A stretch of DNA of 63,865 nucleotides, counting the filler, from Reclinomonas americana ATCC 50394 (taxonomy: Eukaryota): the NCBI GenBank assembly GCA_048213135.1. It is 16 parts of 16 records of this genome, joined end to end, with 100 filler letters (N's around TTAATTAATTAA, not from the genome) between each part and the next. Parts side by side here need not be neighbours in the genome. Positions count along the whole stretch, not along the records: positions 1,137 to 3,166 come from AFZH01017477.1; positions 3,267 to 4,981 come from AFZH01017478.1; positions 5,082 to 6,218 come from AFZH01017479.1; positions 6,319 to 11,328 come from AFZH01017480.1; positions 11,429 to 19,027 come from AFZH01017481.1; positions 19,128 to 23,011 come from AFZH01017482.1; positions 23,112 to 31,959 come from AFZH01017483.1; positions 32,060 to 39,707 come from AFZH01017485.1; 8 more parts are not named here. One strand, given 5' to 3'. The position numbers and the translations under genes are program-made. Positions 1,185-61,626 of the stretch are shown in pieces. Position 1 is the first letter of the stretch; the number at the start of each line of letters is the position of its first letter. The notes beneath the pieces are model-generated. The model was not told the origin of the DNA and ran no database searches. It worked only from the letters and a program-made list of their open reading frames with translations.

Positions 1185-4100
1185 CGTGCCAATAATACAA
1201 CAGCGACAACCAGAATCATGTACAGCCCGAGAAGCATAAGAAGATCATAAAGCAGCGCCATCTAGAGGCAACTCGCACAGAATTAACCAGCACGAATGAG
1301 ATTTAGAAGGAAAGCCACAGGCACAGACGTGGTGGCGAAGAAGTACACATATGTGAGCACACATACAGTCGCCTCTCCCTTCCCCTTTCTCCCTCATCCC
1401 TTCCCCTTCTCCCCCCTCGCCTCCTCACCTCATTGGTCAACGAACACCCCCACAGATTAAAATCATCGCGGATCTTGCGACGAATGTCAAGAATGTCGCC
1501 CTGATAAAACCGATAAATGTGCCGCAAGACGCGATCGGGCAGTGGAGGCAGCTGCCGCAGTTCACGCTCGTGCTTGAAGCCACTGTGAGCGCAGCGGTAA
1601 GAGACGAGTACAGCCGGTGGCACTGCAGCGATGACGCAACAGCTTCGCGTTGGGTTCGTACAACGTGTTCTCGTACTGATCGAGCGCACGATCGGCCAGC
1701 GTGCGCGACCCTCGATCCACCTCCAAAATGCGATACGCCAGTGCCTTGCTAAACTCAAAATCGCTCTTGCCGACCACCGAGTCGATAATCTCCTCTCGCT
1801 GCTTGTACGCCACGTCCGTGTCGTCGCCCTCTGTTGCGGCGACAGGAGGGTGAGCAGCGGTGGGGGCAACACACTTGGGAGCACACACACACTCACCAAT
1901 AATGGCATACACAATAGCGTCCTCGCGCAACGCCTGACTCGACTGGTGCTGCACCATGAGCAGCACACTGTGCCAGTCGCGCGCCTTGCGCACCGCGAAA
2001 TGCAGCTGCTCTTCCAACTCTGCACAGGCAACCAACAGGTTGAGTAACAAAAAAGAGTGAGTGGCGAAGGATGGACTCAACGTTGCCCGTCGCGAGACAG
2101 CAGCAGCTCGAGGACCGCATAGTCGCGCAGACGAATGGCAATGTGGTAGGGGCCAGTGGGATCGGTACGACCCTGCATCGCAAGAGTGAATCAGTAATTC
2201 GGGAAGCAGACGAAGAAGAAAGAGAAGGAGAAGATGGAAGAAAAGGCAGGTGAGATGAAAGGACAGCGTGAAGGATGAAGAATAAGAGAAATCAGTACTC
2301 GGGAGAAAAAGAGAACTAGCAGAAGGAGAATATGTAAGGCAAGGCAGGCGAGATGAAGAATAACGAAGGCATAAAGGTGTGAGAGAGAGGACGCGATCGT
2401 GCTCCGGGCAACGAAACTCGAGGTACATATGTGCGATTCGGCAACACGCCAATGCGCAACAACGCCTGCACCACTTTCCACTCCCACGCAATGGCGGCAA
2501 CCAGCAGCGCTTCCGAAAGATGAACCACAGTAAACCTATAAGCACGCATGTGAGCCAAGACCGCGATCAACCGCCCATTGCTCTCTCACAAAGAATGTCG
2601 CTGTGCGTCTCTCTACTCTCTCATTCTTGCTTGCTGTTTTCAACTCTTGCTTTACATGTTTCTCTCTCTCTCTGCGGGTGTGTCTCTTGCTGTTTTCCTC
2701 CCTTTCTTTCTCTCTTTGCCTCCTTCTGTCTTTCTTGCTTTCGTTCTCTCTGTCTTGGTTTCTTAAGTCTTTCTTGCTGATTTGCATTTTTTGCTTGATC
2801 TTTACTTCTCTCTTTTCTCCTTATTCCTTTCTTGCGTTCTTCATCTTTCGGTCTTTGTCTGTCGTTCTTTCGTGCTTCATTTCTCTCATTCTTGCTCTCT
2901 CCTCTCTTTCTTCTCTCTCTCTTTCCTGCATTCGTTCTCTTTGCCTTCGTTTCTCTCTCTGGCTTCCTCTCTTTCTTCACTCTCTTGCCTTTCTTTCTTT
3001 CTTTCTTTCATTCATTCATTCATCTCTCCGTCCAACTTCTTGTCTCGTCCTCATTTTCCTTCTCTCTATCTTGCTTTCTTCCACCACTCACTTTCTCTCT
3101 CTTCCCCTCACTCCCCCCTCCCTCACTCCCTCACTCCCTCCCTCCCTCCCTTCTTCTCTCTCTCTCNNNNNNNNNNNNNNNNNNNNNNNNNNNNNNNNNN
3201 NNNNNNNNNNTTAATTAATTAANNNNNNNNNNNNNNNNNNNNNNNNNNNNNNNNNNNNNNNNNNNNTCTCTCTCGCTCCTCCCTCCGTCCCTCTTCAACA
3301 CGCAACATATCCACATGCTGCGCCAGCCGCTGCACCAACTCCACAGCACCACTGCCGGCCGCCGTCAACAGCGTCGCCCGCCAAATGACGGCCGCCAGTG
3401 TTTCCTCACACTGGGAGTTGGTGGCCGCCAGCAGCGCCATGCAGCACTCCGTCTTCTGGCGGTGCGCGGCCACCTCGGAAGCGTAGCGCGGCACGTGCAA
3501 ATCCTCGTCGACCTTGAAGTGCTCAAACTGTACAATCTCGAAACACGTATCGGGGTCCATGCCGGCGCCGACAAACATCTGAGCGCCACGCAGTCAGTCA
3601 CGGGATGAGAAGAAGGGGGAGAATGGTCTCACAGTCGCCGCACCTGCACCAACTCCATGTTGCCGTGATGTGCCGCCATGTGCAAGTACGAGTAACCGGG
3701 ACGGAACGGGTGCCTCCGCCAATCGACACTCGTCACCTTGCGCATCTGCTCGTACTCCATGCATTGCGAAAACACGCGACCGTCGGCCACATTGTTCTCC
3801 AGCTGCAAGAGGCGGTCAGTTGGTGGGAAAAGGGAGAAGGAGTGCGAGAGAGAAAGGACGCACCAAGTTCCACAGGTACGAGTTGGAGAACGGCGTAAAC
3901 ATTTCGGGCTCGCGCAAAAACAGCATGCGATACAACTCGGGGTAGCGGGATTCGGGGTCGATCGACTCGCCGTGGGCGAGTGCCAACGCGGCCGTGCGAT
4001 GCACAAAGAGGGAGAAGGGAGAGTCGCCGCGCAGAGTGTGGTGGCGAATATTGGCGCCGAGCTCGATCAATCTCTGCTCACAGAAGTGAGTGACGGGGGG

Positions 4101-4467
4101 ACTGAAGGAAAAGAGGGCCATTAATGATCAAACCTGCACGACAAGAATGGTGGAACGGGCATTGAAGAGGGTCACGCTGTCTGCACACACGCACAACGAC
4201 GTCCATCCGAGCAGATCCGGTGTGTCGACTCCGAGGCCGGAATTGGCGGCCAGCGCGTCCACGCAGTCGAGATGCACCGCACTGTCGGAGAAAAGGAGGG
4301 TGAGCGGGGATTATCATGAAGGAGGGGTTGGTTGGTGAATTATGGCGCAACAGATTCTGGTCCGTGACGAAAAACAGCGAGCACAGCGACGTCCATGCAA
4401 AGTTGCGCTCCTCGTCGGGGAACACAAAGCCATTGTCGAGGCAGTGGCGGAGGATGAGGTAGAGGAC
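1185..4467 (-). CDS. Multi-exon ankyrin-repeat protein followed by a transmembrane helix (possible TRP-like channel); partial, spans a gap
   Basis: Ankyrin motifs RLIELGANIRHHTLRGDSPF, GYSYLHMAAHHGNMELVQMFVGAG, LLTAAGSGAVELVQRL and GPYHIAIRLRDYAVLELLL. Last visible exon (from 1261) reads MALLYDLLMLLGLYMILVVAVVLL. Confidence 0.7.
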
Positions 4468-5767: not shown

Positions 5768-6124
5768 CTGCGAGGGAACACAACAACGATCAACGACGGA
5801 AATCGGGCGCGGAAGTTGGTAGAGAGGGAGGGAGAGCAGAGAGGAGAGAGAGAAGGGGGAAGAGAGGGAGGAGAGAGGGAGGGGGAGAGGGAGCAGAGAG
5901 AGGGAGGGAGGAGAGAGGGAGATGAAAGAAACACAGATACAGACCAATCGATGCACAGACGCTCACACACACTCACTCACTCTCTCTCTCACACACACAC
6001 ACACACTCACGCACACACCCATACGTTCTCTCTCTCTCTCTCTCTCTCTCTCATGCACAAACTTTCACACACGAGAGAAAGAGCATTCTCTCTTCTTCCC
6101 TCTTTCTCTCTCTCTTTGTGCGTA

Positions 6125-6169
<45 letters not shown>

Positions 6170-6368
6170 CTGTGCGCTGGCGTGCATCTGTGCTCCTCTT
6201 CTGCCTTCTCTCTTCGTCNNNNNNNNNNNNNNNNNNNNNNNNNNNNNNNNNNNNNNNNNNNNTTAATTAATTAANNNNNNNNNNNNNNNNNNNNNNNNNN
6301 NNNNNNNNNNNNNNNNNNCTCTCTCACACACACTCTCTCTCTCTATCTCTCACTCACACACTATCTCT

Positions 6369-8399: not shown

Positions 8400-10982
8400 A
8401 TGCTGCGCTGTGCCTCTCGCTACGGCGGTGAGTCACACTCCTCCACACACTCCTCTACACGCACAACACACTGCTCACTCAAGAACATCCGCAGCTCACT
8501 TGTCACGCACATGGACCTGCGCAAGCAGCGCACGTGTCTTCTCCTCTGATGTCACCTCCTCCTCCAACAACACTGATGCAGTGGTGACCGACGACGACAC
8601 AGTGGACGATGTACGCATGCATCACTCACACACGCACAGACAACAACATGCATTTTCACTCTCTTTTCTTTCATTGATGATTATTAGGCAGTCGAGTCTC
8701 GCGAGGGCGAACTCGGCGACAGCGTGTACTTGACGGGCCGAGTGGATCAACAGACTGGGCTGACCACCTCGCCCTTTCCCAAGTCGGTGTGCGCCATTCT
8801 GTTGGAGCCTGTCAATCCCGACGATGTCGAAATCAAACCCGACGGCAGTGTGGTGCGGGCGCAGGGAAAGGAGGGGGGGACAGAGGGGAGATCGCACACT
8901 GTCTTTTGAGCCTTGATTCTCCCTTGATCTCATTCTCGTCGCTCGACCTCCTCTTCCATCATGCCTCTGTTCTGCTGGCCTCGTCTCTCCCTCGTCCGGC
9001 CTCCTTGACTGCATCCACTTCATACGCATCCTCTCCTTCTGTCGTGCTCCGTGCTAATGTCGCCTCTCGTCTTTCCCGTTCGCCTTCTGTCCTCCATATT
9101 CCTCCAGCATGAACTCCTCCCCTTCTCTCCCTTTTACTCGTTCTCTTGTCTGTCCTGCCCTCACTTGTGGTTTTCCTTGCCCGCATCCCCTTGCCTGATG
9201 AGCTCCTCCCCTTCTCTCCTTCGCACGCTTTTATTCATTCATGCTCAGCATCTCTTCTGCACGTCATCGTCCTTGTCAGCCTTGTCGTCGTCTGCCTTCG
9301 TCCACTTCATGATCTCATGTCGCGTGCTGTCTCTTTCTCTCACGCGTTGTCGCCCTCCTGCTGTCCGTCTGTGTCTTGGCCTCTGCGCTTCTCCTTCACG
9401 CTGCCCCCGCTCTCCCCTCCTCCCGACGTCGTCGATGCACTTGTCTCGCGACACGCTTTCGTCCACTGCCTTCTCTCTCTCGGCGCGTTTACAGGCCTCG
9501 CGTCTTGTTTCTGCCTCTGGCTCTCTTCAATAACTCTTTCCATCCTCCTTTCGTCTCTTGTCCACTCTTTGCTTCTTTGTCTGCCGTGCATTCCTCCTCT
9601 CTTTATCCCTTCTCCTTCCCTCACTTACCCCTTCCCCCTCCCCGCAGTACCTCCCCGAAATCAAATACCGCCGCATCCTCAACCGCGCCTTCCGCCCGGG
9701 CGGCTGGGGCATCCTGCCGGCCTCGCCGTACGAGACCGTCGGCGATTTCATCGTGTGCGAATTCGCCTTGTATGCACTCGGGCGGTGAGTGGCAAGAGAG
9801 AGTTAGTAAGCGCTCTTTCCTTTATTTGCATGTCTCACTGAATCGAGTGAGACACAGACGAGTGTCGCAGGCGTGGGGCGAGCATGCGTTGAACAGTGGT
9901 CCCGGCAAGTCGGTGGCCACTGCACTCGAATGTTACGTGCATTTGGAAAAGCGCGATTAAGCAGTCGCCCACTGTCCCTTTCCATCACCGCAGCCGCCCG
10001 CAGTAACGCGCTGATGCGCTGCTGCAAGGATCTCGGCGTCGTCAGCGAGCTGTGGGACCGCGAGTTTATCGAGCAGTGGAAGGCCTCCCGTGCCGTGGAG
10101 GGTTGCGTGACATATTTGTTACAATTACCTCATGTCCTTGGTGTCCTCCTCCTTCGCCTCACCTTTACTTCTCTGTCCCTCATTGACCGTGCTGACCTTC
10201 ACCTCTCCCCTTATTTGCATTCCTCCTGTTACCTCTCCTCACTTCCATTGAACTGATTCTTCCGTCCTTTCTTCTGACCTTCTTCCTCATTTGTTGCATT
10301 TTCCTCCGCAGCTCACTTGTCGTTTCTCCCCCTGCCAGTGCACTCTTTCGTTTTTTATGTGTCTCTTGATCCTCGCCATTCTTTCTCCGCGCCGGCACTC
10401 CACTCACGCCTTCGCATTTCGCTTGGGGTCCTTCTTCGTCCACTCTCTACTGCACTTGCAGTTTTTCTCCTGCTCTTCCTCTCCTCCCTCTCCTGCCCTT
10501 CAATCTCCCTCCCATTCGCGCCTTCGCATTTCGCTTGCTGTCCTTCTTCGTCCACTCTCTACTGCACTTGCAGTTTTTCTCCTGCTCTTCCTCTCCTCCC
10601 TCTCCTTCCCTTCAATCTCCTTCCCCCTCACACCTTCGCATTCCGCTTGCTGTCCTTCTTCATCCACTCTCTACTGCACTCGCAGTTTTTCTCCTGCTCT
10701 TCCTCTCCTCCCTCTCCTTCCCTTCTATCTCCTCCTCCCTCCCCTCACATCCCTTCCCCTTAAATCCCCTCACATCCCTTCCCCTAATCTCCCCCGTGTG
10801 CAGTGTGGTGCGAAAACCAACAAACCAAGCAAAAGCGCAAGTTCTGGCGCCGCAAGGACCGCCCCGCCCTCGAATACCCGTGGAAGGAGGGCGCCTCACC
10901 CGCCACCGCCACCGGCCCCACCTCCTCCTCCTCCCCACAACAGCAGTCGGCACCGCGCCCCGCTGCCCCTCGCCGCGTTTGA
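8400..10982 (+). CDS. MGM101: Mitochondrial genome maintenance protein Mgm101 (Rad52-type ssDNA annealing), 7 exons
   Basis: [56 protein letters not shown] and [16 protein letters not shown]; presequence-like N-terminus [16 protein letters not shown]...ARVFSS. Confidence 0.93.
10400..10740 (+). repeat. Three ~112-bp tandem copies inside the last MGM101 intron
   Basis: Unit CCTTCGCATTTCGCTTG...TCCACTCTCTACTGCACTTGCAGTTTTTCTCCTGCTCTTCC starts near 10408, 10520 and 10633. Confidence 0.85.
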
Positions 10983-11428: not shown

Positions 11429-14400
11429 TTTTCCCCCCATGCACTCACTTGCCAAGACGAATGGCCGTCTCACGCCACACAGCCGTCTGATGCAGAGCAT
11501 CGCGGAAGCGGCGGCGAGCCGGACCAGAGCGGAAGAGCAGCACGTACAGCACCGCCGCCGGGAAACCGACGGTGAAGCCGGCCAACATAATGGCGACGAA
11601 TGGCGAGGCCACAATCCACCGCGCGTCGTAGCACTGCACGGCGAGATCGGCGCGCAGGAACGACGTGCCGTTCGACAGCGACTGGCACTGGAAGAACTGG
11701 AACAGCGGCACCGACACGCCCGGGTACAGCAGGAAGCAAGCTGCACGACCACAGGTAAGCAGAAAATCGGCAAAGGTGGCGTGTGGCGACAGAGAGACGC
11801 AACTCCAAAACATGCGCTCCAGGTACAACTTCAGGCGCTTGCGTCGCTCACCCTGTGCATCGACAGACACGGTGCGTACGAGGCCCTCGGACTCGGCATT
11901 ACTGCCAATCTGTATGCAAAGGAAGATGAGCATCAAGTCGGCCTTTTCGGTGGACACAATGAGGGTGGGTGACGCACAAACTGGAACTCGTGATCCTGCG
12001 ACTTGTTGTCGCTGCGCTTTCGGTACACCGTCACAAAGTACTGCAGCGTCAACAGACCGAGCAGTGTGCCGAGCACCAGCGGGTAGGCCGTCAGGCGGGC
12101 ATAGAAGCCGGTGCTGCCGGGGAAGGTGCACTCCATGAACGCCGAGGCGCGCAGGAACTCGAGATTCATCCAGCCCCACAGCGGCTCGAGCACCTCCAGC
12201 TGCTTCGGCCACTCGAGCAGGTACGAGTTGATCACCGCCAACAGCTGCACAATGCCCACCATGACTCGCAGGTTGGCCAGCACAGTGTTGTTGCGCACAA
12301 AGTAGAAGATGCCAAAGATGGCCACCACGCCCTGCAATGGCAAGAAAGAGGTGAGAAACTGCTTCTCAGACCACAAGATGGTCTATATAACAAATCCCCT
12401 CCTCACCAACAGGGTCATGGCCAGAGTCACACCACGCACGGCGGCCGACGGGCATTCTGTACAGATGAACAGTGAGCATTCGACAATAGAACAACCTTGG
12501 TCACCAAGCAGACGCAACGCTTGCAAGTGTTGCCAGAGAGCATGAATCCGCTGGCACAAGTGGCGCAACCGCGACCAGTAAAGCCAGTGGCGCAAGGAGC
12601 TGTAGAGGCACGCACAAGGTGAGTATGAAAATAAGCATCATCATCCTGCGCCGACATCACACACGCAACTCTCTTTGCGACCCGTGCACGCGCCACGCAG
12701 CGGGCACGACAGGAACTCGGTCGAGTACGGCGCAGTCTGCCAGAAACCCGGCTCAGCGCCGAGCAGGTTGCCCTCTGAGCACATGGCATTGATCGGGCAC
12801 GGCTGGCACGAGAGGTGCGACGGGCTCGTCTCCACCACCACACCCTTGCAGGGCGCGCACGTCACCACGCCATCGGCCGACTGTGAGAACGTGCCATCGG
12901 GGCAAGCAGCCAGACGTGCGCTCAGCGGCAACGTCACCGCCGGCACCGCCGATGAGCGCACGAGCAGGTTGAACGACAGCGCAGAGGTCTGCGACGTGCC
13001 GACCGACACGTTGCTGAAGCACACGCGACCCTGGCTGGCCTGCGCAGCCACGCTACCGCTAATGACTGGCGGGGCGACGACAGTGGCAGCGGCCGCAGCA
13101 GCTCGCACGCGCTGGCTCGACGTGTCAGTGCTGTTGGTGCTGCCGGCAAGCGAGTCGTCAATCGGAATCACCGACGACGAGTCCACCGAGATGGACATGA
13201 ACGAGGAGCTGTCGCCGACAATTTGCTGCAGGGAAGAAACAAGGGCAATGAGTGACAAGAAAGAAGAGAGAGACACAGAGAGAGAGAGAGAGAGAGAAAA
13301 ACGCAACGTTGCCCAGCTGATCAGTGAGCAGCAGGCAGAACTGCGGCAACTGGCTGCCCGGGAAGGTGAGCAGCGACAGCGGCGCCGAGGCGTCCACAAT
13401 GAGACGCGACGGCTTGGAGGCCATGTCGAGACCAATCACACTAAAGTTGCCACCAAAGACATTGTTGTCCATGCGCGGCTTGACCGAGCTCGGCCAGTAC
13501 ACGGCACCGCCCGACACGGAGGCCGAGTTGTTGTTGAACGTCGAGCCCGTGACGGAGCCAATGGCGCTGTCGCGCACGTTCGGATCGACGCTGGTGCCGG
13601 CCGAGGCCTGGCGCGGCGACGACGAGGAGGCCAGCGCGTTGACGGTGAACGTCGACACCTGCAGGCTGGCGTCTTCGTTGAGCAGCAGAGCACCACCGCG
13701 CTGCGCCGAGTTGCTGGTGAAGATCGAGTCCTGGATGCTGTAGGTGAACTCCTCCGGAGTCGACAGGCCGACACCGAGGTACACCGCACCACCGACGCCG
13801 CCGCTGGCCGAGTTCTGGTCAAATGTCGAGCCGACAATGCTGACCGTGGCACCCTGCACGCCGGGGCGCGCCGGCTCCAGCACGTGAATGGCACCACCGT
13901 TGCCGGTGGCCGAGTTCAGCGTGAAAGCACCGTTGCTGATGCGCAGGTCCAGGCAGCTGGCGCACGCCACGGCGCCGCCAAACGCTGCAGAGCCGTGATC
14001 GAACGACGCGCGGTTCACCAAAAAGGCAGTGTCGCGACCAACGTACACCGCACCACCAGCGCCGTCGGCACCGGCCGTGTTGCTAGTGAACGTGGGGGCG
14101 GTGTTGAGGCGCAGCGAGCTGTTGTCGTCGGCGTAAATGGCGCCGCCAGAGCCGGTCGGATCCGAAGCCGAGTTCTTGTCAAACGTCGACGAGGCAACGC
14201 TGACTGACGAACGGAGCATGAAAATGGCACCGCCACCCTCGCCCGTCGCCACATTGTTGCTGAAAACCGCATCGGTAATCGTACCGGTCGTGTCCTCGAG
14301 GTCCACTGTGTGCGTGTGCAGAGAAAAGGTGGGTGAGTGAGAGTTGAGAGAGAGAGGATGCTGGGAGTGACGCAACATGCGCCACCACGGCTGCCGTGGT

Positions 14401-17400
14401 TGCCGGTGAAGAGGGTGCCGTCGGCAATCTGAATGGCCGCAAAGCGACCACGAATGGCCGTCTCCAGATTGTTGGTGAACTGAGAGCTGGCCAAGTTGGC
14501 CGCACCACCCGTCACCAACACCGCCACTCGCGGCAGGCTGTCAAACGTGCAGTGCGTAAAGCTGGCGGTCGAGCTCGGCCCGTTCACCACCACAGTCGCC
14601 GCCACCGAAGTCTCCGCCACCGACTCCACAAACGTGCTCGAGTCGAGGGCGAGCTTGGCATTGGCCAAGTAAACTGTCACAAGGGGGTGAGTGACTCAAG
14701 AGAGACGACGCAAAGCAACACGAGGGAGCGCAACTGGACAGCGCCTCGGTGCGGGCGGCAGAGCTGCCCGAGAAAGTGAGGCCTTGGCCCGAAAGATTGC
14801 TGCCGGCGAGGAACAAAGCACCGCCGCCAGTGGCCGACGGGTTGGCAATCGAGTTGGTCAAGAAGCGCGTGCGCGCAATCTATTTGTTGTACGGAGATTT
14901 CTTTTAGGCCCATGTGCATAGGGTAAGCAGCGAAACAAGTGTGGCACACTCACCGAGAACGGCTTGGTGGCGTCGCCAATCAAGGCCACGGCACCACCCG
15001 ACTGACCAGCCGAGTTCGACTGGAACTCACTGTCGGTGATCGAAATCGCGATCGTGTCGCGGAACAGAGTGGTCTTGGCCGACACGGCACCGCCCGACAA
15101 GCCGGCCCTGAAAAGTTGAGGTGAGCATCCCCACCACACAACAATGCGATTCTCACTGAAAACGCAACGAATTGCCAGTCAGCTTCACGCTCTGCAGCAG
15201 CAAGCTGGCGTCCTTGAGCGCCAGTGCGCCACCGAGACCCGCCGTGGCCGAGTTGCCCTCCAGCGAAGCATTCTGGATGGTGACCGACGCCGGCTGTGCC
15301 GATGCCTCAGCCTCCACGGCAATGGCTCCACCGTCGCCATCGGCCTGGTTGCCGGTGAAATCACTCAACGCCAGCAGACTGGCGCTGCCCATCCAAATGG
15401 CACCACCAGCACGACCGGCCTTGTTCATCGCAAAGCTCGACACGCTGTCGACGGTGAGCGAGGTGGCGTTGAAGTTGCCGACCAAGCTGCCGCGCAGCAC
15501 CAGCGCACCGCCGACACCGGCGGCCGAGTTGCCAGAGAACAGAGTGCCACGGAACTACGCTCAACACATGCAAAGGGAGTGAGCAGGCTGGCATGGCAAC
15601 GCAAATGTGCGCTTCGAGTATCAGACGCAACGTCGTACGCGGCCTGCACTTCGAGGTACAGAGCACCACCGTCGAGCTGAGCGTGGTTGTTCGTCACACG
15701 AGTGTCGGTGAGGCGAGCGCCCTTGATGGCGACCAGGTTGCCCTCCAGACGCGGCAAGTACACGGCACCACCACGGAAAGCGGTGTTGCCATTCAGGTTG
15801 CTACGATCGAGACGAATCTCGACACCGCCCGTCAGAGCCACGGCACCACCACCGCCACCAGCGACATTGCTGTCCATGGTGGACTCGCTGATGCGCACCG
15901 AGTTGAACGCGGTCGATTGCGTGCGGCTCACACTGCCACCATGCACGTGCACGGCACCACCATTCACACCAGCACTATCCCAAGAAGAACAAGTCAGTGA
16001 AACATGCAGACAAGGGCGCGTCATCAGCAAAGTGCACACACCGGTTGCTGAGGAAGGTGCTCGAGTGAATCCACAGCACCCAGTCGGCGTCGGTGGGTGT
16101 GCGCATGCTAATGGCGCCACCGCTCGAGGCCGTGCTGCTGCAGCTGGAGAACTTGCTGCTCACAATCTTGACAGGGGACTGTCGGCGAGCGCTTTGCGGA
16201 GTCACTGAGGATGGAGAAAGCGCGTGAGCAGTGGTGGTGATGGTGGGTTTCAGGAATGACAATCCCGCTCACCGACAATGCGCAGCGCTCCGGGTCCGTC
16301 AATGGCCTCCAGGTTGGTAAAGGTACTCTCGGTGATGGCCAGCGGTGAATCGAGGCACACCGAGGTGGGGCAATTGTCGACCACACTAATGGCGGGACCG
16401 TCCGAGTTCTGCACCGTCCAGTACGCAATCGAGATCGACTCGTTGACGTCGGTGGAGCACGGGCGCGGGCTCGAGGAGAACGAGCGCACAGACACCAGTG
16501 CCTTTGAGTAACCGAGAGCTGACGGACGTCGGTTCGGCAGCGAGAAGCTCGTCCACTGCAGCAAAGGAAAAGAGACAGTGAGTGACACACGATACAATGG
16601 CAGGGATACCCCACTGGCACGCAGCACTCACCGACACGCGATCAATGGTCACACCTGGCGCGGCTGTGCACAGCGCCACAGCGTCGATCATTTCCACGAC
16701 TGTGTTGTTGAAGTTGTTGTTGAACTGGACGCCCGTCATGTTCAAGTACAGCTGCGTTCCACGAATCGTGCCGTCAAACTCCTCATTGCCGAGCGACGGG
16801 TCTGTGGCAACAATAAAAAGTGAGTTGCGAAAGAAGACAGCCGTTGATGGAGAGCAGCAACGCAACAAGTGGTGGTATCGCGATCCATGCCCGACACGGT
16901 GACCGTGTCGAGAGTGACAGCACTATTCGTGCTGCGCGCCAGCTGCGTGCCGCCGACGACCGTCGACTTGGAGATCGTGAGCGTCGCTCCGTTGGCACCC
17001 TGCCAGAAGAGCGGCTTGCGATCGCGCAGAAGTACGCGCGAGTTGATAATGTTCACCGAGCCACCCTGCAGCGCACGCACGGCAGCCGTGGTGGAGAGGG
17101 AGCCACTCACGGCCGGATTGAACGTGATCTCATCCGAGTCGAAGCGGGCAGAGCCGGCGCCGAGCACCTCAGCGACGCCAGCATCGGGACTGGTGCCGAC
17201 AACCCAGCCCGACTCGAAAATGAGCGACGAGTCCGTGTCCACCGAGAAGGCCGTCGTACCGGCGCACGGGTACACTGCAGCGCTGTTCACTTGCAGGAAC
17301 GCGTTCTGTGATTTGGGGGAGCAGGGGATGAGAAAGGGGACTTGTTTGAAGTGGGATGGAAGCCTCGCTACTGACCTCGAGGAAAAACATGGATCCAATC

Positions 17401-18565: not shown

Positions 18566-24403
<5,838 letters not shown>

Positions 24404-30502: not shown

Positions 30503-31959
30503 TGTCGGACCTTTTGTTCAAGGCCAAGAACCTCATGACCAAGCTGTTGCGTGATTATCCGCCCAGGTCTTGTGCTGAGTGATGCAAACTCACTTGTTCT
30601 GCCTGTGTGCCTTTCTTCTGTGCGCGCGTGCAGCAAGAACAAGGTCATGAACGTGTCGCCAGTCGAGGCTCTCACTCTGGAAGGTCAGTGTGCACGCTGG
30701 CGTCTGTGAGAGTAGTGAGATCTACTTTTGTGCGCGTCTGCACGTGTGTGCTCGTATTCAACTCCACTCTCTCTCTCTTGTGCACGCGTGTGTGTCTGTC
30801 TGGCGCACTGTTGATGCTCACTGTGTTTGTGTGTGTGTGTGTGTGTTTGCGCAGCCACGAACAACGATACGTGGGGAGCGTCGGGCACTCAGCAGCAGGA
30901 GATTGCCGAGGCCACCAATGATCGGTGAGTGTAAGTGTGTGAGAGCGAGAGAGGGAGGGGCAGGCACGTGCGATGAGGTTGTGTGTGCGCGAGTGAGTGT
31001 GTGTGAGGGTGTGATGTCGCCATGTCGTTCGATAGCAAGTTTGTTTGTGCGTGTGTATGTGCGTATGTGTGTTTGTGTGTGTATGTGGCACTTGTGTGCG
31101 TGCGTGTGCGTTTGTTTTGCGCTGTCTGTCTGTGTGCGTGTGTGTGATGCATCATGGAGTTTCCCGCCTGTGTGCGTGCGTCACTGTTTTTTTGTTTGCT
31201 GTATGGTGTCTCTTCTCCTCCGCGACGGTACACTTTGTGCTCTTGTGTGTGTCTCTCTCTGTGTGCGATTGTGTTTATGCGTGTGTGTGTGTTTACGTGG
31301 GCGCGCGCGCGTGTGCACATGGCGCGTTTTGAGCGAATCTGAAGCACGCACTCCCGCGCGCCCTTCTCTCTCTCTCGTGGTTGTTGCGCTCACTCTCTGC
31401 TGTGTGTGTGTTGCGCAGTGAGCAATTGCAGGCGGTCATGGCGATCATCTTCAAGGTTTGTGTGATGGTGAATCAATCATGCAGCGCTTCTGTGTCTCAT
31501 CGCATGCGTCTTCGCAGCGACTGGATGACTCTGGCAAGAAGTGGCGCCATGTTTACAAGGGTGAGCCTCTCTCTTTATCTCTCTCTCTCTCTCTTCTCTC
31601 CGTCTCTTTCCCCTCTTCTGATCGTCGCGCTTGCTTCAGCCATGAGCCTGCTCGAGTACTTGATCAAGCACGGATCGGAGCGCTGCGTCGACTATGCTCG
31701 CGATCAGGTGCGCGCGCGCACGCCGAGTGCTTCACCTCCTCCTCGTCGTCTCTCACTTCCGTCTCCCCACTCAGCTGTACAAGATCCGCACGCTGCACGA
31801 CTTCCAGTACATTGACGAGACCGGCAAGGACGAGGGCATCAATGGTTTGTTCACATCCGCTCCCCTCATTGTGACACGCCGTTCTCAACGTGGTGCACAG
31901 TCCGCGAAAAGTCCAAGAAGCTGGTCAAGCTGCTGAACGACACCGACGCCATTCGTGAT
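30503..31959 (+). CDS. ENTH-domain protein (epsin/CLINT1-like), 3' partial
   Basis: Spliced: [84 protein letters not shown]. Start codon not located with certainty. Confidence 0.92.
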
Positions 31960-37832: not shown

Positions 37833-40487
37833 GAGGAGGAGGAGGAGGAGGACGACGAGTAGGGAGGGAGGACGAAAGCATTTGCGCGAGTGCGTGAGAG
37901 ACAGAGAGGAAAAGGGAGGGAGGGAGAGAGAGAGGTAGAGAAAAAACAACGCGAGAGAGGAATCATACCCAACGCACCCGAATGCGGCGGCCGGCGCAGC
38001 AGTCACGGGCGAGCCCGGCACATCACCAGTGACGCGCTTCTTGCGGAATTCCGAGAATGACATGGGAGTGGTGGCCCCGGAGGCGGCAGCGACAGCCGCA
38101 GAAGCGCCTGCAGTGGGTGTCGGCAGCGCGTCGCTCTGCTCGTCCTTCATTATAACATCCAGTGGCGGCAGTGGCGGCAAGCCAGAAACCTCTGGTTTCT
38201 GGGCCAGATACGAGCCCAACATGCGCTTCTTCGGCGCACAAGGCGAGCTCCTGGCGAACGGCACATGAGACATGAGCGCCACAAACAAAACAGAAAGAGC
38301 GCACACACATACGACGGCGCGCAGCGCAACTCTTGGAAGCTCTGCAGCAGGTAGGCCTTCTTGCTGACAAAGCTGGGTGCAGCTGACGATGCTGCAGCAG
38401 ACGCAGCGGAGGCAGCAGCAGCGGCAGCGGCGGCCGCACCGGCACTGTCTCCACTTCCGGCCGATTGCACAGGAGTAGTGACAGCATGCGCTTGCGTGGC
38501 GACACCGTTGCCTTCAGCAGCAGCAGCAGAGGAAGCGGTGCCCGAATTACTGGACTTGCGATCCGATGCGGCCGTCTCCGACGACGCGCCTGTCTTGCCC
38601 TTCTTGCCACCTTTGCCCTTCTTGCCTGTCGCCTTGGAGACACTCGATTCAGCGGTAGCAGCGGGTGCTGGAGCGACAACTGCAGGCGGTAATGCAGCGG
38701 CAGTGGCGGCAGCGGCAGCGGCGGCAGCAGCAGCAGCAGCTTTCTTGCCCATTTTGCCGACGGAACGCGGCTTTGCATCCTCGTCCACCGCCACGTGCTT
38801 CATGTCCGCAATGCCCTTGCCTGCATAACATACACACGCGCGCATTAGTGATGTGCAAGTGGAGTACTGTAGCGTCAAGCGCCAAACCCTTCTTGCCGCC
38901 AGCAGCCGCAGTGGTCGGAGGTGCTGCTGTGGTGGTTACTGACGGTGTCGGTGTTGCTGTTGTTGTTGTTGTTGTTGTTGTTGTTGCTGTCGTCGTGGTT
39001 GTAGAAGTCGATGATAAAGATGACGGTGGTCGAGCGTCTGTTGGACCACCACGGCCAGCCATTGCGCCCCTGCCCACCGCGCTGCTGCCACCGCCACGTT
39101 TGGCCAGTGCACCACGCGCACCTCGTCCCCCACCGCGACCAGCAGCAGCAGCAGCAGAACTCTGTATTGCCGCGACGCAACATGTCAGCACGTGACACAC
39201 AAGCGAGAAGAGGAAGAGAGCAGGATCACGCACCGCATCCTCCTTGCTGCTCTTCTTGGGCTCCACCGTTGCCTCCTTGCTCTTGGCGCCGTCGCTCGCC
39301 GTCTTGGGCGCACTGCTGGCATCGCCCTTCTTACTCTTCTCAGGCACAGCAGCTCCCTTGGTCTTCTTCGCAGCATCCTTCTTCGCCTGCTTCTTCTTCT
39401 GCTCCTTCTCCTCCTCCTCTTCTTCATCCTCGTCATCATCCTCATCCTCGTCATCCTCGTCGCCACTCGACGAGCTCTCCGTCACGTACGTGAATCCTTT
39501 CGGCGTTGGCTTCTTGGTCTTCGGCGGAGTCACCTTCTTGCCACCACCACTGCTGCTGGTGCCCGACGCCGACAACTTGCGCTATTGTGCACACCAAAAA
39601 AGATGGATTCCATCACAAATCAATCAATGATTGATGATCACAATGCACACCACAATGAACACACAAAACAAGCAGCAGACACACAGCTGCACAAGCGCGC
39701 GCTCCGCNNNNNNNNNNNNNNNNNNNNNNNNNNNNNNNNNNNNNNNNNNNNTTAATTAATTAANNNNNNNNNNNNNNNNNNNNNNNNNNNNNNNNNNNNN
39801 NNNNNNNTCCTCTTTCATCTCCTTCTCCTCCTCCTCAGGCTCCACTTCCTCCTTCATCTCCACATCTTGCTGCTGCTGCTGCTGCTGCTGCGGAGGCGGC
39901 GGTGACGGCTCTGTTGCTGCAGCTTGAGCTGGTGGCGGTGACGATGGTGGTGGTGGTAGTGGTGATGATGGCGCAGGCAATGGTGACGAGGGTGGTGGTA
40001 TAGAGGAGGCCTCCATTGACGATGCAGTTGGCGGAGTTGCAGGTTGTTGTTGTTGTTGAGGTGGTGGAGGTGGTGGTGGTGACGATGGAGACGACGGCGG
40101 CGGTGGTTGTGGCGGGGAAGGCGGTGGCGACGACCGCGGCTCCTCTGCAGAGGAGGAGCCGGCGGTGTTACCGTCCACGGCCGCCTGAATCGTCAGCAGA
40201 TGCGGACAACTCCACTTGTCATCCTCGTCCTCCTCGTGCTCTTCCTCCTCTTCCTCATCCTCTAGCTGCACGAGCATTGGTGGCCACCATCTCTGCGGCG
40301 AGTGGCTACATGCGTCCTCCAGGGCGACCGCGCACATGGCCGCTGCGCGATGATCACGCGGCATTGCATACGGCGACAGTGACAGTGCTTGCAGCGAGCA
40401 CGGCATCACCACACGTCCGCGCGTCTCTCGCAAACACCGCACATAGTCGGCCACACTGGGCGGCGGCACACCGTCAGCGCGAGACAT
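35045..40487 (-). CDS. Long low-complexity (Pro/Ala/Gln/acidic/RGG) protein with one dsRBD-like domain; may be more than one gene
   Basis: Chain of GT-AG exons. Spliced segment at about 37390-37675, SKQHQLLERCRALNVKQPHIQTMQVVGGYTASVTFP..YSSEVEAREAVCEKGLEYL, fits the alpha-beta-beta-beta-alpha DSRM pattern; RS/RD-rich C-terminus. Confidence 0.55.
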
Positions 40488-43490: not shown

Positions 43491-45297
43491 AATACATGTG
43501 AATGTGATTGACAACTGATCATCTCGCAGTCGCCTGTTTGCTTCCTCCACTTCTTCCACTCGTAAGCCTCGCAAGCCACGAAACAGCGGCACTGGTATCC
43601 TGCGTGCTGGTGAGTAAGTATTCACTCTGTCCACCTGCTCTTGTCCTCACTCCCTTCGTGCACATACACACACATAGAGAAACTGGAGAAGCTCGTTGCT
43701 GCCATGCGCCAGGCCACCCTTTGGCACGTCGACGCTGCCACGTCAGCTCGCACCAAGACGACCGACATCACCACCACCACCTACATTGAGTTGGAGCAAG
43801 GCGTGAAGTGGCCGGGAATCGGCTCGCCCATTCTGTTTGTGCGCGACTTTTACGACCGCCTCTTCTCCTCTTCTGCCGGCCTTGGTGGCCTCGATCCAGC
43901 TCGCTCATACGGCAAGCGTCACAAGTTCTACATCACGGGCACGCCTGGCATTTCCAAGTCGGCGTTCGGCATGTATGTGCTGTACCGGGCGCTGATGGCC
44001 AAGAAGACCATCCTGCTGCGCCACGGCGACATTGAGAACTTCACGCCGCATTTGATCGATGGCAAGCGCGTGTGGGCATCGGCGACGGAGATGCCGCTGA
44101 ATCGCGATCGTGGTATCGACCTGTACTTGGTGGATGGCACCAGGCCGGGTCTGTACGACACCGAGGAGGTGACAATGTCGCTCCTCATCACCTCACCGAA
44201 CCGCCTCCTCTGGCGTGACTTTGCCAAGCGCCGCGGAGTGCCGCTCTACTTCCCCACGTACCAGTACGAGGAGCTGGAGTTGTTGCGGCAGGTGGCCTTC
44301 GACGATCAGAGTCGTGAGGAGGTGCGACAGCGATATGAGATGTGGGGCGGATCGGCGCGCTCGGTTCTCTCCGACAACGACGACATTGGCCAACTCAGCT
44401 TGGAAACTGCATTCATGAAGTTCAAGCCGCAGGATCTACTGCGGGCTGTGGAGCTTGGCGCGGAACGTGAGGATGGCAGTGGCGCTGGCATCTCCCATCG
44501 CCTCGTGCACCTGATCGTTGACCGTGCCAAGTTTACGCTGGTGGGTGTGGACTTTGCCTCCGCCTATGTGGCGATGAAGCTGCTCGAGGAGTGGCGCAAG
44601 TGGCACGTACTGGACGCCAAATTCCTGCTGTCGCGTCTGCATGCGTTGGGCTCGATTGCATCGGTCATGTACGGCCATGCCTTCGAGGAGTACGCCCACA
44701 TCGTGTTGGCTGGCGGTGGACGCTTCAAGTGCCGCGAGCTGGTCAAAGGTGGTGGTGACGCACCGTCAACTGTGCTGGAGCTGGTGCCGAGTTTCGCATT
44801 TTGTGGTCTTGTCGAAGATGATGCGTGCTGTAGTTGCGCGTGCTGATGCTTCATTCACAGGCCGTTCACACGTTTTTTCCGATCTGTCGGAGGTGGTAGC
44901 GCATCACTACTGGCGTCCGAAGGCCGCCAACTTCCCCGCCATTGACTGTATCATGAACCGCACGGATGGCGGTCTGGCGCTGGGCAACATGACAATCATT
45001 GACAAGCACGAGATTGTTGCGCTGACGGAGAAGGGCCAGACTGGTCTGCTGCCTCTGGTGCAGACACTGCGCCACAACGGGGAGATCAATTTCTACTGGG
45101 TGGTGCCGGCTCGCGTCTTTGAGAGGATGCGTGAACCTGGCGCCATTCTGAACAAAACCAATCCACTGGTGGACGAGGAGGCCGTGGAGCGCCTGCGACA
45201 GCAAGTACGTCAGTTTGTGTTGTGTATCGATGTGGAACCTGCCATTGAAAAGAAGACAGAGTCGTCGCTTTATTATCACGCAATGAGAGTTTTTTAA
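43233..45297 (+). CDS. Crinkler/RHS-type P-loop NTPase + restriction-endonuclease-fold protein with a presequence-like leader; exons 43233-43266, 43333-43387, 43530-43609, 43678-44790, 44861-45297
   Basis: Walker A ITGTPGISKS, Walker B YLVDG, ITSP, WGGSAR, FASAYV, GHAFEEYAH; REase-like YWRPKAANFPAIDC..NMT...H, FYWVVP, RQFVL. Confidence 0.85.
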
Positions 45298-47296: not shown

Positions 47297-47529
47297 AGGC
47301 GACACCGAAGGCTTTCTGCCTTGTTTCTTCTCTTCGTGCGTTGAGCAAGGGGGATTCTGTGTCGGCATTCTCTGTGTACAGTAAATGGTGTGTGCCCTGC
47401 TTGCACTCGTTGGTGGGGCACCTGGCATTGAAGTTGAGATCGATGTCCTCGCGGACATGCACTGTTCTCCGTTGTCTAGTCGTCCCTCTCGTGACCTCAG
47501 CACCTCACTCTCTCCACCCCCATTCTATC

Positions 47530-48627: not shown

Positions 48628-48829
48628 AGGCGACACCGAGGCTTTCTGCTTTGTTTCTTCTCTTCGTGTGTTGTGTGCACAAGTAAATGGTGTGTGCAGT
48701 GCTCCTTGCTCATTGGTTTCACTTGGCGTTGAAGTCGAGATAGCTGTCCTCGTGGACATGCACACTTCGTTCTCCGTTGTCGTCCCTCTCGTGACCAGAG
48801 CACCTCACTCTCTCCACTCCCATTCTATC

Positions 48830-50360: not shown

Positions 50361-51405
50361 ATGCCGCGGGCATCGACGACGGCGGAGGATATTCTGACAG
50401 GGAACACCACTCGGCATTTGCAGAAGAAGAGCAAGCAGAGTTGAGTGGAAGGGAGAGAGAGAGAGAGAGAGTGAGTGAGTGAGGGAGGGAGGGAGGGAAG
50501 GTGAGTGAGTGAGTGAGAGAGTGAGTGAGTGAGTGAGTGAGTGAGTGTGATTGCTGTGTGAGTGAGTGAGTGAGTGAGTGAGTGAGTGAGTGAGTGAGTG
50601 AGGGAGTGAGTGAGTGAGGGAGTGAGTGAGTGAGTGTATAAGAGAGAGTGAGTGAGAGTAGTGTGTGTATATGTGCAGAGGCCTCTGCCTCTCATTGCAC
50701 CCACTCCTCACTCCTCTTCCCCATCCTTCCCCCTTTACCCCTTTCCTCACAGTGCACCGCATGCTCGGCCGCCTCGGCGTCAGCGGCGCATTCGGCTCCG
50801 GCGGCATTCACTCGTCAATGGACATGGACACGGCCAGTGGGAGCGGCCTGACGAGCACTGAGCGGAAAAAGTTGAAGAAGCAGCGACAAAAGGTGCGCGC
50901 CTCGGCACCCGTCACACCTCGTGGTGGTGGTGGTGGCAGTGGTGACGCCGACGAAGCACCACGACTTGATCTGTCGGCCTTTTTGGTGCGACGGTCCGAC
51001 GAGGCGGCCGAGGCCTCCACCGCCTTTTCGACGCCGGCGAACCGCCTGAAGAGTCGCGGACTGCGACGCAAGCTGCGACAGCGCAAGGAGAAGGCGTTGG
51101 AGCGCGGACTCGGCTTTGCGTCGCGTCTCGAGCAGCGCGCTGTCAAGCTCATCAAGACGCCGAGCAGCGCTGTGACGACCAGTGCGCGGCGCAAGAAGGC
51201 CGCCGCCTCGTCGTTGCTCAAGTCGTCGCTGAATTCGGCGAGTGGTGAGCGTGCTGCCGCCGCGTCGCGTCGCCAGCGACAAATGGGTGATGCGCTGGCG
51301 GAGTTTTTCGGCAGCGATGACGATGACGACGATGACGACGAGGTGGAGAAGGGTGAGGCGGAGGTGGTTGCTGGTGGCGGCGGCGAGATGGACGACAGTG
51401 AGTAA
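50361..51405 (+). CDS. Basic protein resembling ribosome-biogenesis factor Alb1; 2 exons (50361-50439, 50753-51405)
   Basis: In-frame splice at GTTGAGT..CAG; segment RRKLRQRKEKALERGLGFASRLEQRAVK resembles the Alb1 motif; acidic tail. Family call is by eye. Confidence 0.55.
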
Positions 51406-57737: not shown

Positions 57738-58007
57738 ATGGATCTTCCTAGTCTTGTGGACCCAGTCGTTGCGTTTTAGAGAGAGGGTGTGTGTGTGTGT
57801 GTGTAAGTGTGTGTGCAAGTGTATGTTTTTGTTTGATTTTGTGATTGTTGTGTCATTCTCTCACTTGATACACTGGTGCTGTTGGTGTGCAGGCTGATGG
57901 GCACCAGTTGCGTACTCTCACACACACAGAGAGAAATTGAGAGAGAAAGTGAGAGGAACAAAGAGTAAGAGAAGGACAGACTGAGCCAGAGGAAGTGAGT
58001 GTGTTTA

Positions 58008-59694: not shown

Positions 59695-61626
59695 ATGGCT
59701 GGTCATGCTGCTGTGCATGCTGCCGATGAGCTCCCGATTCCCGACTTCAACGAGAAGCTCTTTGGTGCGTGTCCGCCCATTCGCGCTTTCCCTCTCCTCC
59801 CCTGCTCTCTCACACACACGTTGGCGATCATCCCAGATATCGCAAAAGATAAGGAAGTGTGCACGCTGGTGAGTGAAATGGGGAAGAGAGAGACGCAGCA
59901 GCACGCAGCTACTTGAGAGCAAACAGTGAGAGAGTGAGTAATGATTGGGAAGAGAGGAAGAGGGAGAGGGGAGGGCGATGCAACAAAGAAACCGAACAGT
60001 TAGGCATCTAGATTCCAGCTAGCTGTTTCTTTTCTCATGACTCATTTCTTCTTGCGCTGCTCGTGAAGGGGAAGGGAGGAGAAGAGAGAGAGAGAGAGGA
60101 GACGTGCATGTCACAGAAAGAAAGTACGGGAAGGAGAATGGAAGGCAGGAGAGAGGAAAGGAGAGGAGTAGAGGGGAAGAGTGGGCATATGGCACAGAAA
60201 GAAAGTGCGAGAGAAAAAGGAAATAGTACACAGGTGACTCACTCATGATTCTCCGCTGACCGTAATCGCAGGGCGCTCTCTGTCCGTGCGCACTGATGGG
60301 CGTCAACAAGGCTGCGCTTGATGGCGAGGATACATCCACTGGATCCTGGAACTATATCGTTGCGTCTTGGTGCAGACCATGCATTGACAGCGGATTCGTT
60401 CGCTTGCGTTTTTTCTCAAATATCGCGTGCATCCAGTACATGGCTGTGGCTGCCGGCTCGTTGTGCTGCTGTGGTGAGAACGAGTCTCAATTGTCGTGTG
60501 TTGCTTTGCTGTGTTGTAGGTGCGCGGAATGCTGAGGTATTTCTTGCAATTGCATGGTTGTAGTTGTCGGCGAGTTCATGAATCGCCGCCAGTTGCGCCA
60601 GATGCTCAATTACCCGCAGGTTCGTGTATGCGCGCAAAGGAGAGCTGTTAGACGAATGATCCCACTCCCTGTTTTGAAGAGACAAAAAGAGGGAAGGGGC
60701 ATTTTCCAGCGTGCGCGACTTTAGAGCGCACAATGTTGGATGAGTTGTCCCTCTTCCTGGGTTATTCTCTCTCTCTCTCTCTCTCTCTCTCTTGTCTCTT
60801 GTCTCTTGTCTTTGACAAAGTGGGGTTGGCGTCGATACGCGTATACGCCAGCAGAGACAGCTGCAGCGTGCATGAGTTTAGAGTGCCATTCGCAACCATA
60901 TTGCGGACACCACCGAGTTAGACTGACTCTCTCCCTGGGTTGCCCTCTAGCTGCCCCTCTACGCGATGAGTTGACCAGAGTGGGGAAGGGATCAGTGATT
61001 CAACGGATGAGCCTCTCGCAACCATGTTGCTGGCACTCGTAGTTCTCCCTCACCCTCACGCACGTACTCTCTCTCCTTTTCTATCTCTCGTGTAGTGCAC
61101 GCTTCCCGTTCCAATTCGTGCTTCCCCCCTCAGAAGCCGTTCCTGGATTGTGCGCTCTCCACCTTCTGCACGTACTCTCTCTCTCCTTTTCTGTCTCTTG
61201 TGCAGTGCACGCTTCCCATTCCAATTCGTGCTTCCCCACACAGAAGCCGTTCCTGGATTGTGCGCTCTCCACCTTCTGCACGTGCTGCTCCGCGTGCCGT
61301 TGCGATCTCTGCGCGCCTTCTTCCAAACACTCTTTTCCCATGCCCACGCTCCTCTCTCTCCCTTCACACATGCAGAGGTCTCGCGTGAGATTTCTCGGTT
61401 CGACGTGACCAATCTCGCTGCCACTCGCAAGGCGCGTCGCATCGCCCGCTATCGTGCGCTGGGAGAGGCCACCGCCAACCAAATGGATCCACCGGCCGGC
61501 GCCGTTCTGGCCTCGCCTGTTGTCGCCTACAACGCCCCCGGCCACATGCAGATGCAACAGCCGTCCGGTGTCGGTGCCGCCTACGCCCCCGGCCCGGCCA
61601 TTCCCCAGTCATACGGTCCACGTTGA
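59695..61626 (+). CDS. PLAC8 (Cys-rich, DUF614) family protein
   Basis: Spliced FNEKLFDIAKDKEVCTLGALCPCALMGVNKAALDG...SLCCC...NRRQLRQML...EVSREI matches the PLAC8 pattern. Confidence 0.72.
61060..61283 (+). repeat. Two ~110-bp tandem copies in a PLAC8 intron
   Basis: GCACGTACTCTCTC...CAGAAGCCGTTCCTGGATTGTGCGCTCTCCACCTTCT repeated twice. Confidence 0.9.

Follow-up and report, generated by a model that had tools for sequence, protein, structure and literature searches.

GTTGCGT-type donors in Reclinomonas americana: a candidate class of 5′ splice sites shifted by one base

U12-type introns carry the donor word ATATCCTT/GTATCCTT at their 5′ splice sites (donors), human donors recognised in a shifted register were reportedly described by Roca and Krainer in 2009, and a register in which the pairing of U1 small nuclear RNA (snRNA) is bulged at +2/+3 is said to go back to Roca et al. 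in 2012. Shifted and bulged registers have been validated in human cells, and Tan et al. 2016 (PMC4856993), in the sections consulted, estimate that all validated non-canonical registers together account for ~1.5% of human donors. GTGCGT(G) is given as the normal donor consensus in the consulted sections of accounts of Ostreococcus (PMC2483917) and Micromonas (PMC3879977). In a window of 63,865 nt from Reclinomonas americana ATCC 50394 (the whole stretch of DNA analysed here), an original prediction had listed 30 donors, mostly of the form GTTGCGT, in which one extra base follows the GT and the conserved G lies at +6 rather than at +5. These sites look like a real, abundant, T-specific and in-phase donor class in the window, and this candidate class would make up roughly a quarter to a third of the window introns.

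The human shifted-register donors, as the consulted sections describe them, resemble the present sites in starting with GU and in having an extra U at +3 and a G at +6; as is proposed for the present sites, they are cut at the GU while the U1 pairing is displaced by one position. They differ in frequency, all such registers together making up ~1.5% of human sites compared with 16 of the 45 introns parsed here, in their core, which is AAGU in human and GCGU here, and in that the human U1 pairing has been proven by suppressor U1 experiments, whereas here it is deduced from sequence. The bulge +2/+3 register, again as far as those sections go, likewise has one nucleotide more than the consensus immediately 3′ of the GU, but its normal register keeps a G at −1 useful, whereas here a −1 G is avoided and the extra base is T only. 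The GC-rich picoalgae Ostreococcus and Micromonas share the normal donor G/GTGCGT (the slash marks the cut) and a CTGAC-type branch; the consulted sections of their accounts (PMC2483917, PMC3879977) make no mention of a one-base-shifted class, and introns are dense in the present window. A literature survey at the level of search listings, with supplements outside its scope, found no description of a donor class of the GTTGCGT/GUUGCGU type.

U12-type introns, which also form a second sharply defined donor class beside the main one, were considered and rejected, as the minor-class word given above occurs in none of the 30 donors and the 3′ ends are like those of the major class.

Positions are numbered along the whole window, and donor +1 is the first intron base. 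Direct reading finds at all 30 coordinates what had been predicted, namely a GT on the strand given, one extra base and then a core of the GCGT, ACGT or GAGT type. The base at +3 is T in 29 of the 30 donors and C in one (21645), the base at +6 is G in 30 of 30, and at +7 there are 24 T, 5 C and one A, so that the core lies exactly one position further into the intron. The donor words are GTTGCGT (18 sites), GTTGCGC (3), GTTGAGT (2) and GTTACGT (2), with GTTTCGT, GTTGAGC, GTCGAGT, GTTGCGA and GTTTCGC occurring once each. The window contains 23 copies of GTTGCGT, 18 of which are listed donors, compared with 11.8 ± 3.3 in dinucleotide shuffles, none of 100 of which reaches 23. The 45 bases 3′ of GTTGCGT are 59% pyrimidine compared with 50% after any GT (p = 0.003). 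A heptamer test with a loose branch-plus-YAG pattern gave 11 of 23 for GTTGCGT (p = 0.007), but with a background rate of 23% it has low power and is not relied on.

All 28 introns that can be delimited begin with GT and end with AG, the last three bases being CAG in 25, TAG in 1 and AAG in 2; two listed sites have no definable end. The delimited introns are mostly 58–88 nt long, and most have a CTCAC/CTGAC-like motif 2–40 nt before the 3′ end. The median length is 71 nt for shifted and 69 nt for normal introns, and the ends and branch-like motifs are alike in both classes.

Reading phase was assessed with a Viterbi gene parser that combines codon log-odds with an intron content model skipping the first 8 intron bases, GT..AG being its sole signals. 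When every GT was allowed (the motif-blind parser), 11 of the 30 listed sites were used exactly; this parser is noisy, placing many implausible donors elsewhere and choosing an in-phase GT 12–24 nt off at several listed sites. In restricted runs, normal donors were defined as GT[AG][ACT]G[TC] and shifted donors as GTT[AG][ACT]G[TC]. The normal pattern by itself gave a window score of 2013 bits with 37 introns, and addition of the shifted pattern (92 sites) raised the score to 2464 bits (+451) with 16 extra introns used. When the inserted base was A instead (39 sites), the score was 2023 bits and 1 site was used; C (141 sites) gave 2077 bits with 4 used, and G (186 sites) gave 2108 bits with 10 used. 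An extra TT was used at 0 of 34 sites, any two extra bases at 6 of 456 and a one-base-deletion pattern at 26 of 940. The share used as donors is thus ~17% for T-insertion sites compared with 1–5% for every other class.

When the 30 listed positions were allowed in addition to the normal pattern, the parser took 19 of them at the default intron penalty of −8 and gained 465 bits. In controls, each listed site was swapped for a random non-canonical GT within 150 nt, and 30 replicates at this penalty used 5–12 of 30 sites and gained 68 to 160 bits. At a penalty of −4 the numbers were 19 of 30 compared with 5–12 of 30 in 20 control runs, and at zero penalty 23 of 30 compared with 5–15 of 30 in 20 control runs. 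The comparison of the parser with its controls, together with the MGM101 and orphan genes described below, shows for sites other than 3306, 30546 and 57768 that removal of the introns restores one open, homologous reading frame.

The densest set of shifted donors lies in a gene for a Chlamydia-PMP/right-handed beta-helix repeat protein at 11448-17948 on the minus strand, with 17–18 introns. The gene is open from 17948 to 11448 through 17 introns, of which 8 are shifted and 9 normal, so that the share of about one half predicted for this gene is borne out. Its listed sites, all on the minus strand, are as follows.

11741..11803, minus strand: putative intron, GTTGCGT, A at −1, 63 nt, open; flanks best in phase 1 (15 and 42 bits)
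12457..12518, minus strand: intron, GTTGCGT, C at −1, 62 nt; used by motif-blind and restricted parsers; the following 17-nt exon is doubtful
12600..12669, minus strand: intron, GTTGCGT, A at −1, 70 nt; used by restricted parsers, the motif-blind parser taking an in-phase GT 12 nt upstream
13226..13307, minus strand: intron, GTTGCGT, C at −1, 82 nt; used by motif-blind and restricted parsers
14306..14376, minus strand: intron, GTTGCGT, T at −1, 71 nt; used by motif-blind and restricted parsers
14674..14734, minus strand: intron, GTTGCGC, A at −1, 61 nt; used by motif-blind and restricted parsers; inside a genomic contig of run X1
15108..15168, minus strand: intron, GTTGCGT, C at −1, 61 nt; used by restricted parsers, the motif-blind parser taking an in-phase GT at 15156
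15555..15631, minus strand: intron, GTTGCGT, C at −1, 77 nt; used by motif-blind and restricted parsers
16802..16866, minus strand: intron, GTTGCGT, T at −1, 65 nt; used by motif-blind and restricted parsers

The parser reads through the intron at 11803 because its length is a multiple of 3 and it is stop-free. At 14376, a site used by the motif-blind and restricted parsers alike, the junction splits the same codon as had been quoted in the original prediction. Four sequencing runs compared with the window consist of genomic contigs, and two pieces from them match 14283-14908 and 17353-17914, neither spanning a joint. The contig over 14376 comes from run X1, which probably represents the data of the assembly itself, and shows no difference there. 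Among the 17 introns of this gene, core identity between pairs of shifted introns has a mean of 0.55 and a maximum of 0.67, compared with 0.47 and 0.66 for mixed pairs, and copies of an introner-like kind are not seen. Relatives of a beta-helix exon were found at 26 metagenome loci with 27–39% identity, none of them close.

Splice-site choice was scored against homologous proteins in three genes, which carry the following listed sites.

9932..9993, plus strand: MGM101 intron, GTTACGT, T at −1, 62 nt, phase 1; supported by the homologue profile and restricted parsers
10102..10803, plus strand: MGM101 intron, GTTGCGT, G at −1, 702 nt, phase 1; supported by the homologue profile and by motif-blind and restricted parsers
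21645..21715, plus strand: alanyl-tRNA synthetase intron, GTCGAGT, G at −1, 71 nt; used by the parser with listed sites allowed
44791..44860, plus strand: orphan-gene intron, GTTTCGC, A at −1, 70 nt; used by the motif-blind parser and the parser with listed sites allowed

In MGM101, every stop-free combination of a GT or GC donor with an AG acceptor was scored against a profile of 91 homologues. The combination of donor 9932 with acceptor 9994 is the best of 25 (154.7 bits, the next reaching 144.3), and of 291 combinations for the second site, donor 10102 with acceptor 10804 comes first with 197.3 bits, ahead of an in-phase GC at 10105 with 190.2 bits. The profile thus picks exactly 9932 and 10102. 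The MGM101 protein is nearest to those of chytrid and blastoclad fungi (63% over 46 residues). Two of its introns on the plus strand are long, 8853-9647 (795 nt) and 10102-10803 (702 nt), with neighbours of ~60–80 nt, and the intron at 10102-10803 is ~79% pyrimidine on the sense strand.

In the orphan gene, both frames follow from a profile built on 7 environmental homologues, which gives 303.2 bits to the spliced product compared with 221.5 bits to exon 1 alone, and the junction 44791/44861 ranks 1st of 265 with a margin of just 1.2 bits. This gene, at 43704-45440 on the plus strand, has a coding score of ~160, and the 7 environmental homologues, with 30–34% identity, were those found among 5.8 billion proteins. 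At 21645 all options score 7–10 bits against the homologue profile, an in-phase GT at 21624 scoring highest. The alanyl-tRNA synthetase gene itself (18626-23508, plus strand) is of bacterial type; its best matches are bacterial with 45–49% identity, and there is no eukaryote in the top 120. Since the gene is of bacterial type and yet full of short introns, it probably encodes an organellar enzyme in the nucleus.

The remaining listed sites, all of them putative introns or donor-like sequences, are spread over the window.

1583..1640, minus strand: intron, GTTGCGT, T at −1, 58 nt; flanks both best in phase 2; skipped by the parser
2011..2081, minus strand: intron, GTTGAGT, C at −1; 3′ end ambiguous (62, 71 or 73 nt); used by motif-blind and restricted parsers
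2173..2417, minus strand: intron, GTTTCGT, A at −1, 245 nt; used by the parser with listed sites allowed, in a weak gene model (coding score 44–49)
3300..3306, minus strand: donor-like, GTTGCGT, T at −1; rest of the intron lost in the gap at 3167-3266
4282..4351, minus strand: intron, GTTGCGC, T at −1, 70 nt, phase 2; supported by flank scoring and a repeated peptide motif
24825..24899, minus strand: intron, GTTGCGT, T at −1, 75 nt; used by restricted parsers, the motif-blind parser taking an in-phase GT at 24887
27670..27741, minus strand: intron, GTTGAGC, A at −1, 72 nt; used by the parser at zero intron penalty only
38251..38330, minus strand: intron, GTTGCGC, A at −1, 80 nt; flanks in phase 2 (34 and 19 bits)
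30546..30633, plus strand: donor-like, GTTGCGT, T at −1; weak, flanks at most 12 bits, outside all gene models
32350..32413, plus strand: intron, GTTGCGT, A at −1, 64 nt; flanks 14 and 13 bits, in phase 0 only; skipped by the parser
32951..33025, plus strand: TPR-repeat gene intron, GTTGCGA, A at −1, 75 nt; used by the parser with listed sites allowed, with TPR matches in the upstream exon
33170..33231, plus strand: intron, GTTACGT, A at −1, 62 nt; used by the parser at zero intron penalty only
34349..34433, plus strand: intron, GTTGCGT, A at −1, 85 nt; used by motif-blind and restricted parsers
50440..50752, plus strand: intron, GTTGAGT, A at −1, 313 nt, full of GA/GAGT repeats; used by motif-blind and restricted parsers
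57768..57774, plus strand: donor-like, GTTGCGT, C at −1; weak, without coding signal on either flank
57907..57974, plus strand: donor-like, GTTGCGT, A at −1; weak, only in a gene model of coding score 10, the parser's 3′ end being AAG
60359..60436, plus strand: intron, GTTGCGT, C at −1, 78 nt; used by the parser at zero intron penalty only

The phase of all 30 introns was said to have been checked by hand. For most of them this is upheld, 19–23 of 30 being used by the parser compared with 5–15 of 30 in the controls, and five more that the parser skipped (1640, 4351, 11803, 32350 and 38330) have flanks whose frames are consistent with the claimed intron. The claim is not confirmed at 3306, which runs into a gap, at 30546, 57768 and 57907, which have almost no coding signal, or at 21645 and 38330, which have in-phase rival GTs. 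At 3306 the run of N begins 40 nt downstream, and the 35-nt intron that the parser makes of this site at zero penalty is not credible because the intron runs into the gap. At 4351 a repeated peptide motif is found in one frame upstream and then, downstream, in the frame expected from a 70-nt intron. About half the introns of an ankyrin gene had also been predicted to be shifted; the ankyrin label rests on one weak Ank_3 match (E = 0.009), which lies in the contig that carries 4351. For the acceptor of 2081, the parser chooses 71 nt (phase 1) or 73 nt (phase 0) depending on the run, and a CAG at 62 nt would give the same phase as the 71-nt end. At 38330 the parser prefers an in-phase GTGTGCGC that lies 24 nt downstream at 38306. 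Parsed donors at 28379 (minus strand), 38306 (minus strand) and 8787 (plus strand) all read GTGTGCGC, in which a normal GTGCGC core lies two bases after another GT. They may be tandem donors or reflect a two-base displacement, and the frames favoured the first GT.

The frequency of the class was counted in 22 gene models, after removal of models whose coding score was under 28 or that merely shadowed a stronger gene on the opposite strand. These models contain 29 normal and 16 shifted donors, so that in one window and by a home-made parser the shifted share is 16 of 45 (36%), which together with the beta-helix gene (8 of 17) agrees with the prediction of a large share. The last exon base of the listed donors is A in 13, T in 8, C in 7 and G in 2, as had been noted (not G in 28 of 30, often A), and it also holds that normal donors usually follow an exonic G (17 of 29 in the parsed set). 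This difference in −1 G, 2 of 30 compared with 17 of 29, is significant (Fisher p = 1.9e-5); it is also seen in the parser's own shifted set (1 of 16, p = 5e-4) and against the expectation from codon position (2 observed and 8.3 expected in 22, p = 0.003).

The exon side of the normal donors, with G at −1 in 17 of 29, C at −2 in 14 of 29 and G or T at −3, suggests the consensus CG/GT and not CAG/GT, and normal donors like CG/GTGCGT occur across the window, for example at 17884, 17763, 27212 and 34645. Because of this C at −2 together with the C at +4, the 5′ end of U1 in this organism may be unusual. The proposal that CA/GTTGCGT mimics CAG/GTGCGT slid by one base is not supported, since the normal exon side is not CAG and only 4 of the 30 shifted sites have an exon side ending in CA. 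The use of phases 0, 1 and 2 is 4, 10 and 2 for shifted donors compared with 11, 8 and 10 for normal ones (p = 0.03). Phase 1 is taken by 10 of 16 shifted donors in the parser set and by 15 of 22 among the listed sites used, and normal donors are spread evenly.

These observations lead to a plausible model of how the shifted donors would be recognised. They would belong to ordinary U2-type GT-AG introns, which are short (median ~70 nt) and pyrimidine-rich and have a CTCAC/CTGAC-like branch and a CAG end, and the 5′ signal would differ from the normal one by one extra U after the GU, giving GU-U-GCGU (or -ACGU, -GAGU) for GU-GCGU. U1 snRNA would pair one base further into the intron, so that the real +1 G fills the usual slot of the exonic −1 G, the +3 U fills the +2 slot and GCGU fills +3 to +6. 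The cut would stay at the sole GU and be fixed later by U6, U5 and Prp8, which would have to accommodate a cut lying one base further from the G. A displaced register is favoured over a bulge because the inserted base must be T, as the pairing of the +3 U in the +2 slot needs, and because G is depleted at −1, though a bulged helix should keep or even raise the need for it. We give a probability of about 0.5 to the reading that the shifted donors belong to U2-type introns recognised by U1 in a register displaced by one base.

Several points weigh against this reading. All junctions were called from genomic DNA alone, a search of sequencing runs for the window having listed no RNA run, and the introns are putative; the home-made parser had been trained iteratively on the same window, where codon bias is weak; in the normal set of 29, some GTGTGT-type donors are doubtful; and 9 of the 30 listed sites fall in one gene. 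In-phase rival donors at a distance that is a multiple of 3 nt, including the GC at +4/+5 of GTTGCG, fit the frame equally well. When the 30 sites are scored with the exon-side matrix of the normal donors, they reach −42 bits in place and −13 bits after displacement by one slot, which is better but still negative, and since the displaced exon side has no positive match, the deduction of the register depends solely on the requirement for T and the depletion of G. Acceptance of the extra base by U6 would be required as well. No U1, U6 or other snRNA was found in the window by Rfam, either at gathering scores or at E up to 1, where only microRNA-like matches driven by microsatellites appeared. 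The original prediction had suggested as a possible cause a variant U1 or U6 snRNA or an altered U1C, LUC7 or Prp8.

An alternative with the same introns is that U1 (and U6) pair in the normal register and that one of the adjacent U's at +2/+3 is bulged. The registers validated in human cells in the consulted sections (PMC4856993) include one bulged at +3 (or +2), with two identical adjacent U's such a bulge would be degenerate, an extra unpaired base is required for U6 under either reading, and the exon side of the shifted sites has no positive match to the displaced normal matrix. However, a −1 G would add a pair to a helix weakened by the bulge, and yet it is depleted (2 of 30 compared with 17 of 29) instead of staying favoured, an argument which presumes that the −1 G preference reflects pairing with U1. 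A bulge should also tolerate other inserted bases, but A, C and G are used at 2.6–5.4% compared with 17% for T, and we consider this alternative unlikely. The two sharply separate donor classes, with their differing exon-side preferences and phase use, would also fit two U1 species, the shifted donors being matched without shift or bulge to GUUGCGU by a second U1 snRNA or an altered U1 5′ end. A change in an snRNA is conceivable in that the normal GTGCGT already departs from the usual GTRAGT, and the same idea is raised for Ostreococcus in the consulted sections of PMC2483917. Both classes are, however, adjacent within the same genes and have identical 3′ ends, and the Rfam search of the window that found no snRNA also speaks against a second U1, so that two U1 species seem very unlikely.

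It could also be that the class is partly an illusion of annotation, in that the true donors are other in-phase sites, either GC-AG introns cut at GTT/GCGT or GTs 12–24 nt off, and GTTGCGT is merely enriched near intron starts. Frame tests are blind to the choice between donors spaced by multiples of 3 nt, the motif-blind parser took neighbours at 12669, 15168 and 24899, 38306 was preferred over 38330, the GC alternative at 10102 is just 7 bits worse and the margins at 44791 are 1–3 bits. On the other hand, 8 of the 30 sites have no GC at +4/+5 (GTTACGT, GTTGAGT, GTTGAGC, GTTTCGT, GTTTCGC and GTCGAGT) and still have the same shape of GT, one base and core, there would be no coding rationale for exons to end invariably in GTT whatever their phase, and the neighbouring alternatives share no motif, whereas G is found at +6 in 30 of 30 listed sites. 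The GT reading also ranked first in both MGM101 tests, and an illusion of this kind appears improbable. GC-AG introns as a class were rejected, as the GC is absent at that place in 8 of 30 sites and the GC reading is 7 bits lower at 10102. Sequencing or assembly error adding a T to normal GTGCGT donors is hardly credible: the assembly is fragmented, with 16 pieces in 64 kb, and a one-base change inside an intron leaves frames intact, but errors would neither shun donors that follow G (2 of 30 compared with 17 of 29) nor always add T at one place, the exons have no matching frameshifts, and two sites are identical in the run X1 contigs, though these data are probably not independent.

The preferred reading, recognition by U1 in a displaced register, can be extended to the genome as a whole, and this extension is tentative and rather doubtful. 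Two registers of 5′ splice sites would exist side by side genome-wide, with ~1/3 of introns one base out, a rule of no G at −1 and a lean to phase 1, caused by a re-tuned U1, U1C or Prp8 or by a second U1, and R. americana would be the first organism in which shifted recognition is mainstream. Cut-site choice with U1 out of register is so far known from a few dozen human sites and from reporter constructs. If the extension is true, thousands of natural shifted donors beside normal ones would form a large data set on the features that decide the register, a natural test of whether the cut site is determined by U6, U5 and Prp8 on their own, and an example of splice-code drift in evolution. If RNA data and a genome-wide count confirm it, a rare human curiosity would have turned into a main splicing mode in this lineage. 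Gene finders with a single donor matrix would miss or shift ~1/3 of the introns in this genome.

The window is divided into 16 pieces of 1–8 kb by 15 linkers of the form N44-TTAATTAATTAA-N44 at 1037-62027, which interrupt all six frames with a stop. Since the alanyl-tRNA synthetase gene crosses the linkers at 19028-19127 and 23012-23111, the pieces lie in order. Pfam scans of 522 stop-free frames of at least 70 residues and of 57 predicted exons named genes for MGM101, Chlamydia-PMP/beta-helix repeat, bacterial-type alanyl-tRNA synthetase, kinase, WD40, ENTH, TPR and Tpt1 proteins, with the one weak ankyrin match. Searches of PDB sequences with exons of the TPR and WD40 genes did not help to establish orthology; the WD40 exon at 28740-29381 on the minus strand is, among solved structures, most like a bacterial WD40 array (2ymu). 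Microsatellites of GA, GT and GAGT are dense at 5999-6193, 23137-23210 and 50519-50751, and sub-threshold Rfam matches to microRNA families are artefacts of this composition. At 40586-49606 on the plus strand, five long and almost intron-free frames with WD40 repeats lie in a row, and the region has a strong positive GC skew.

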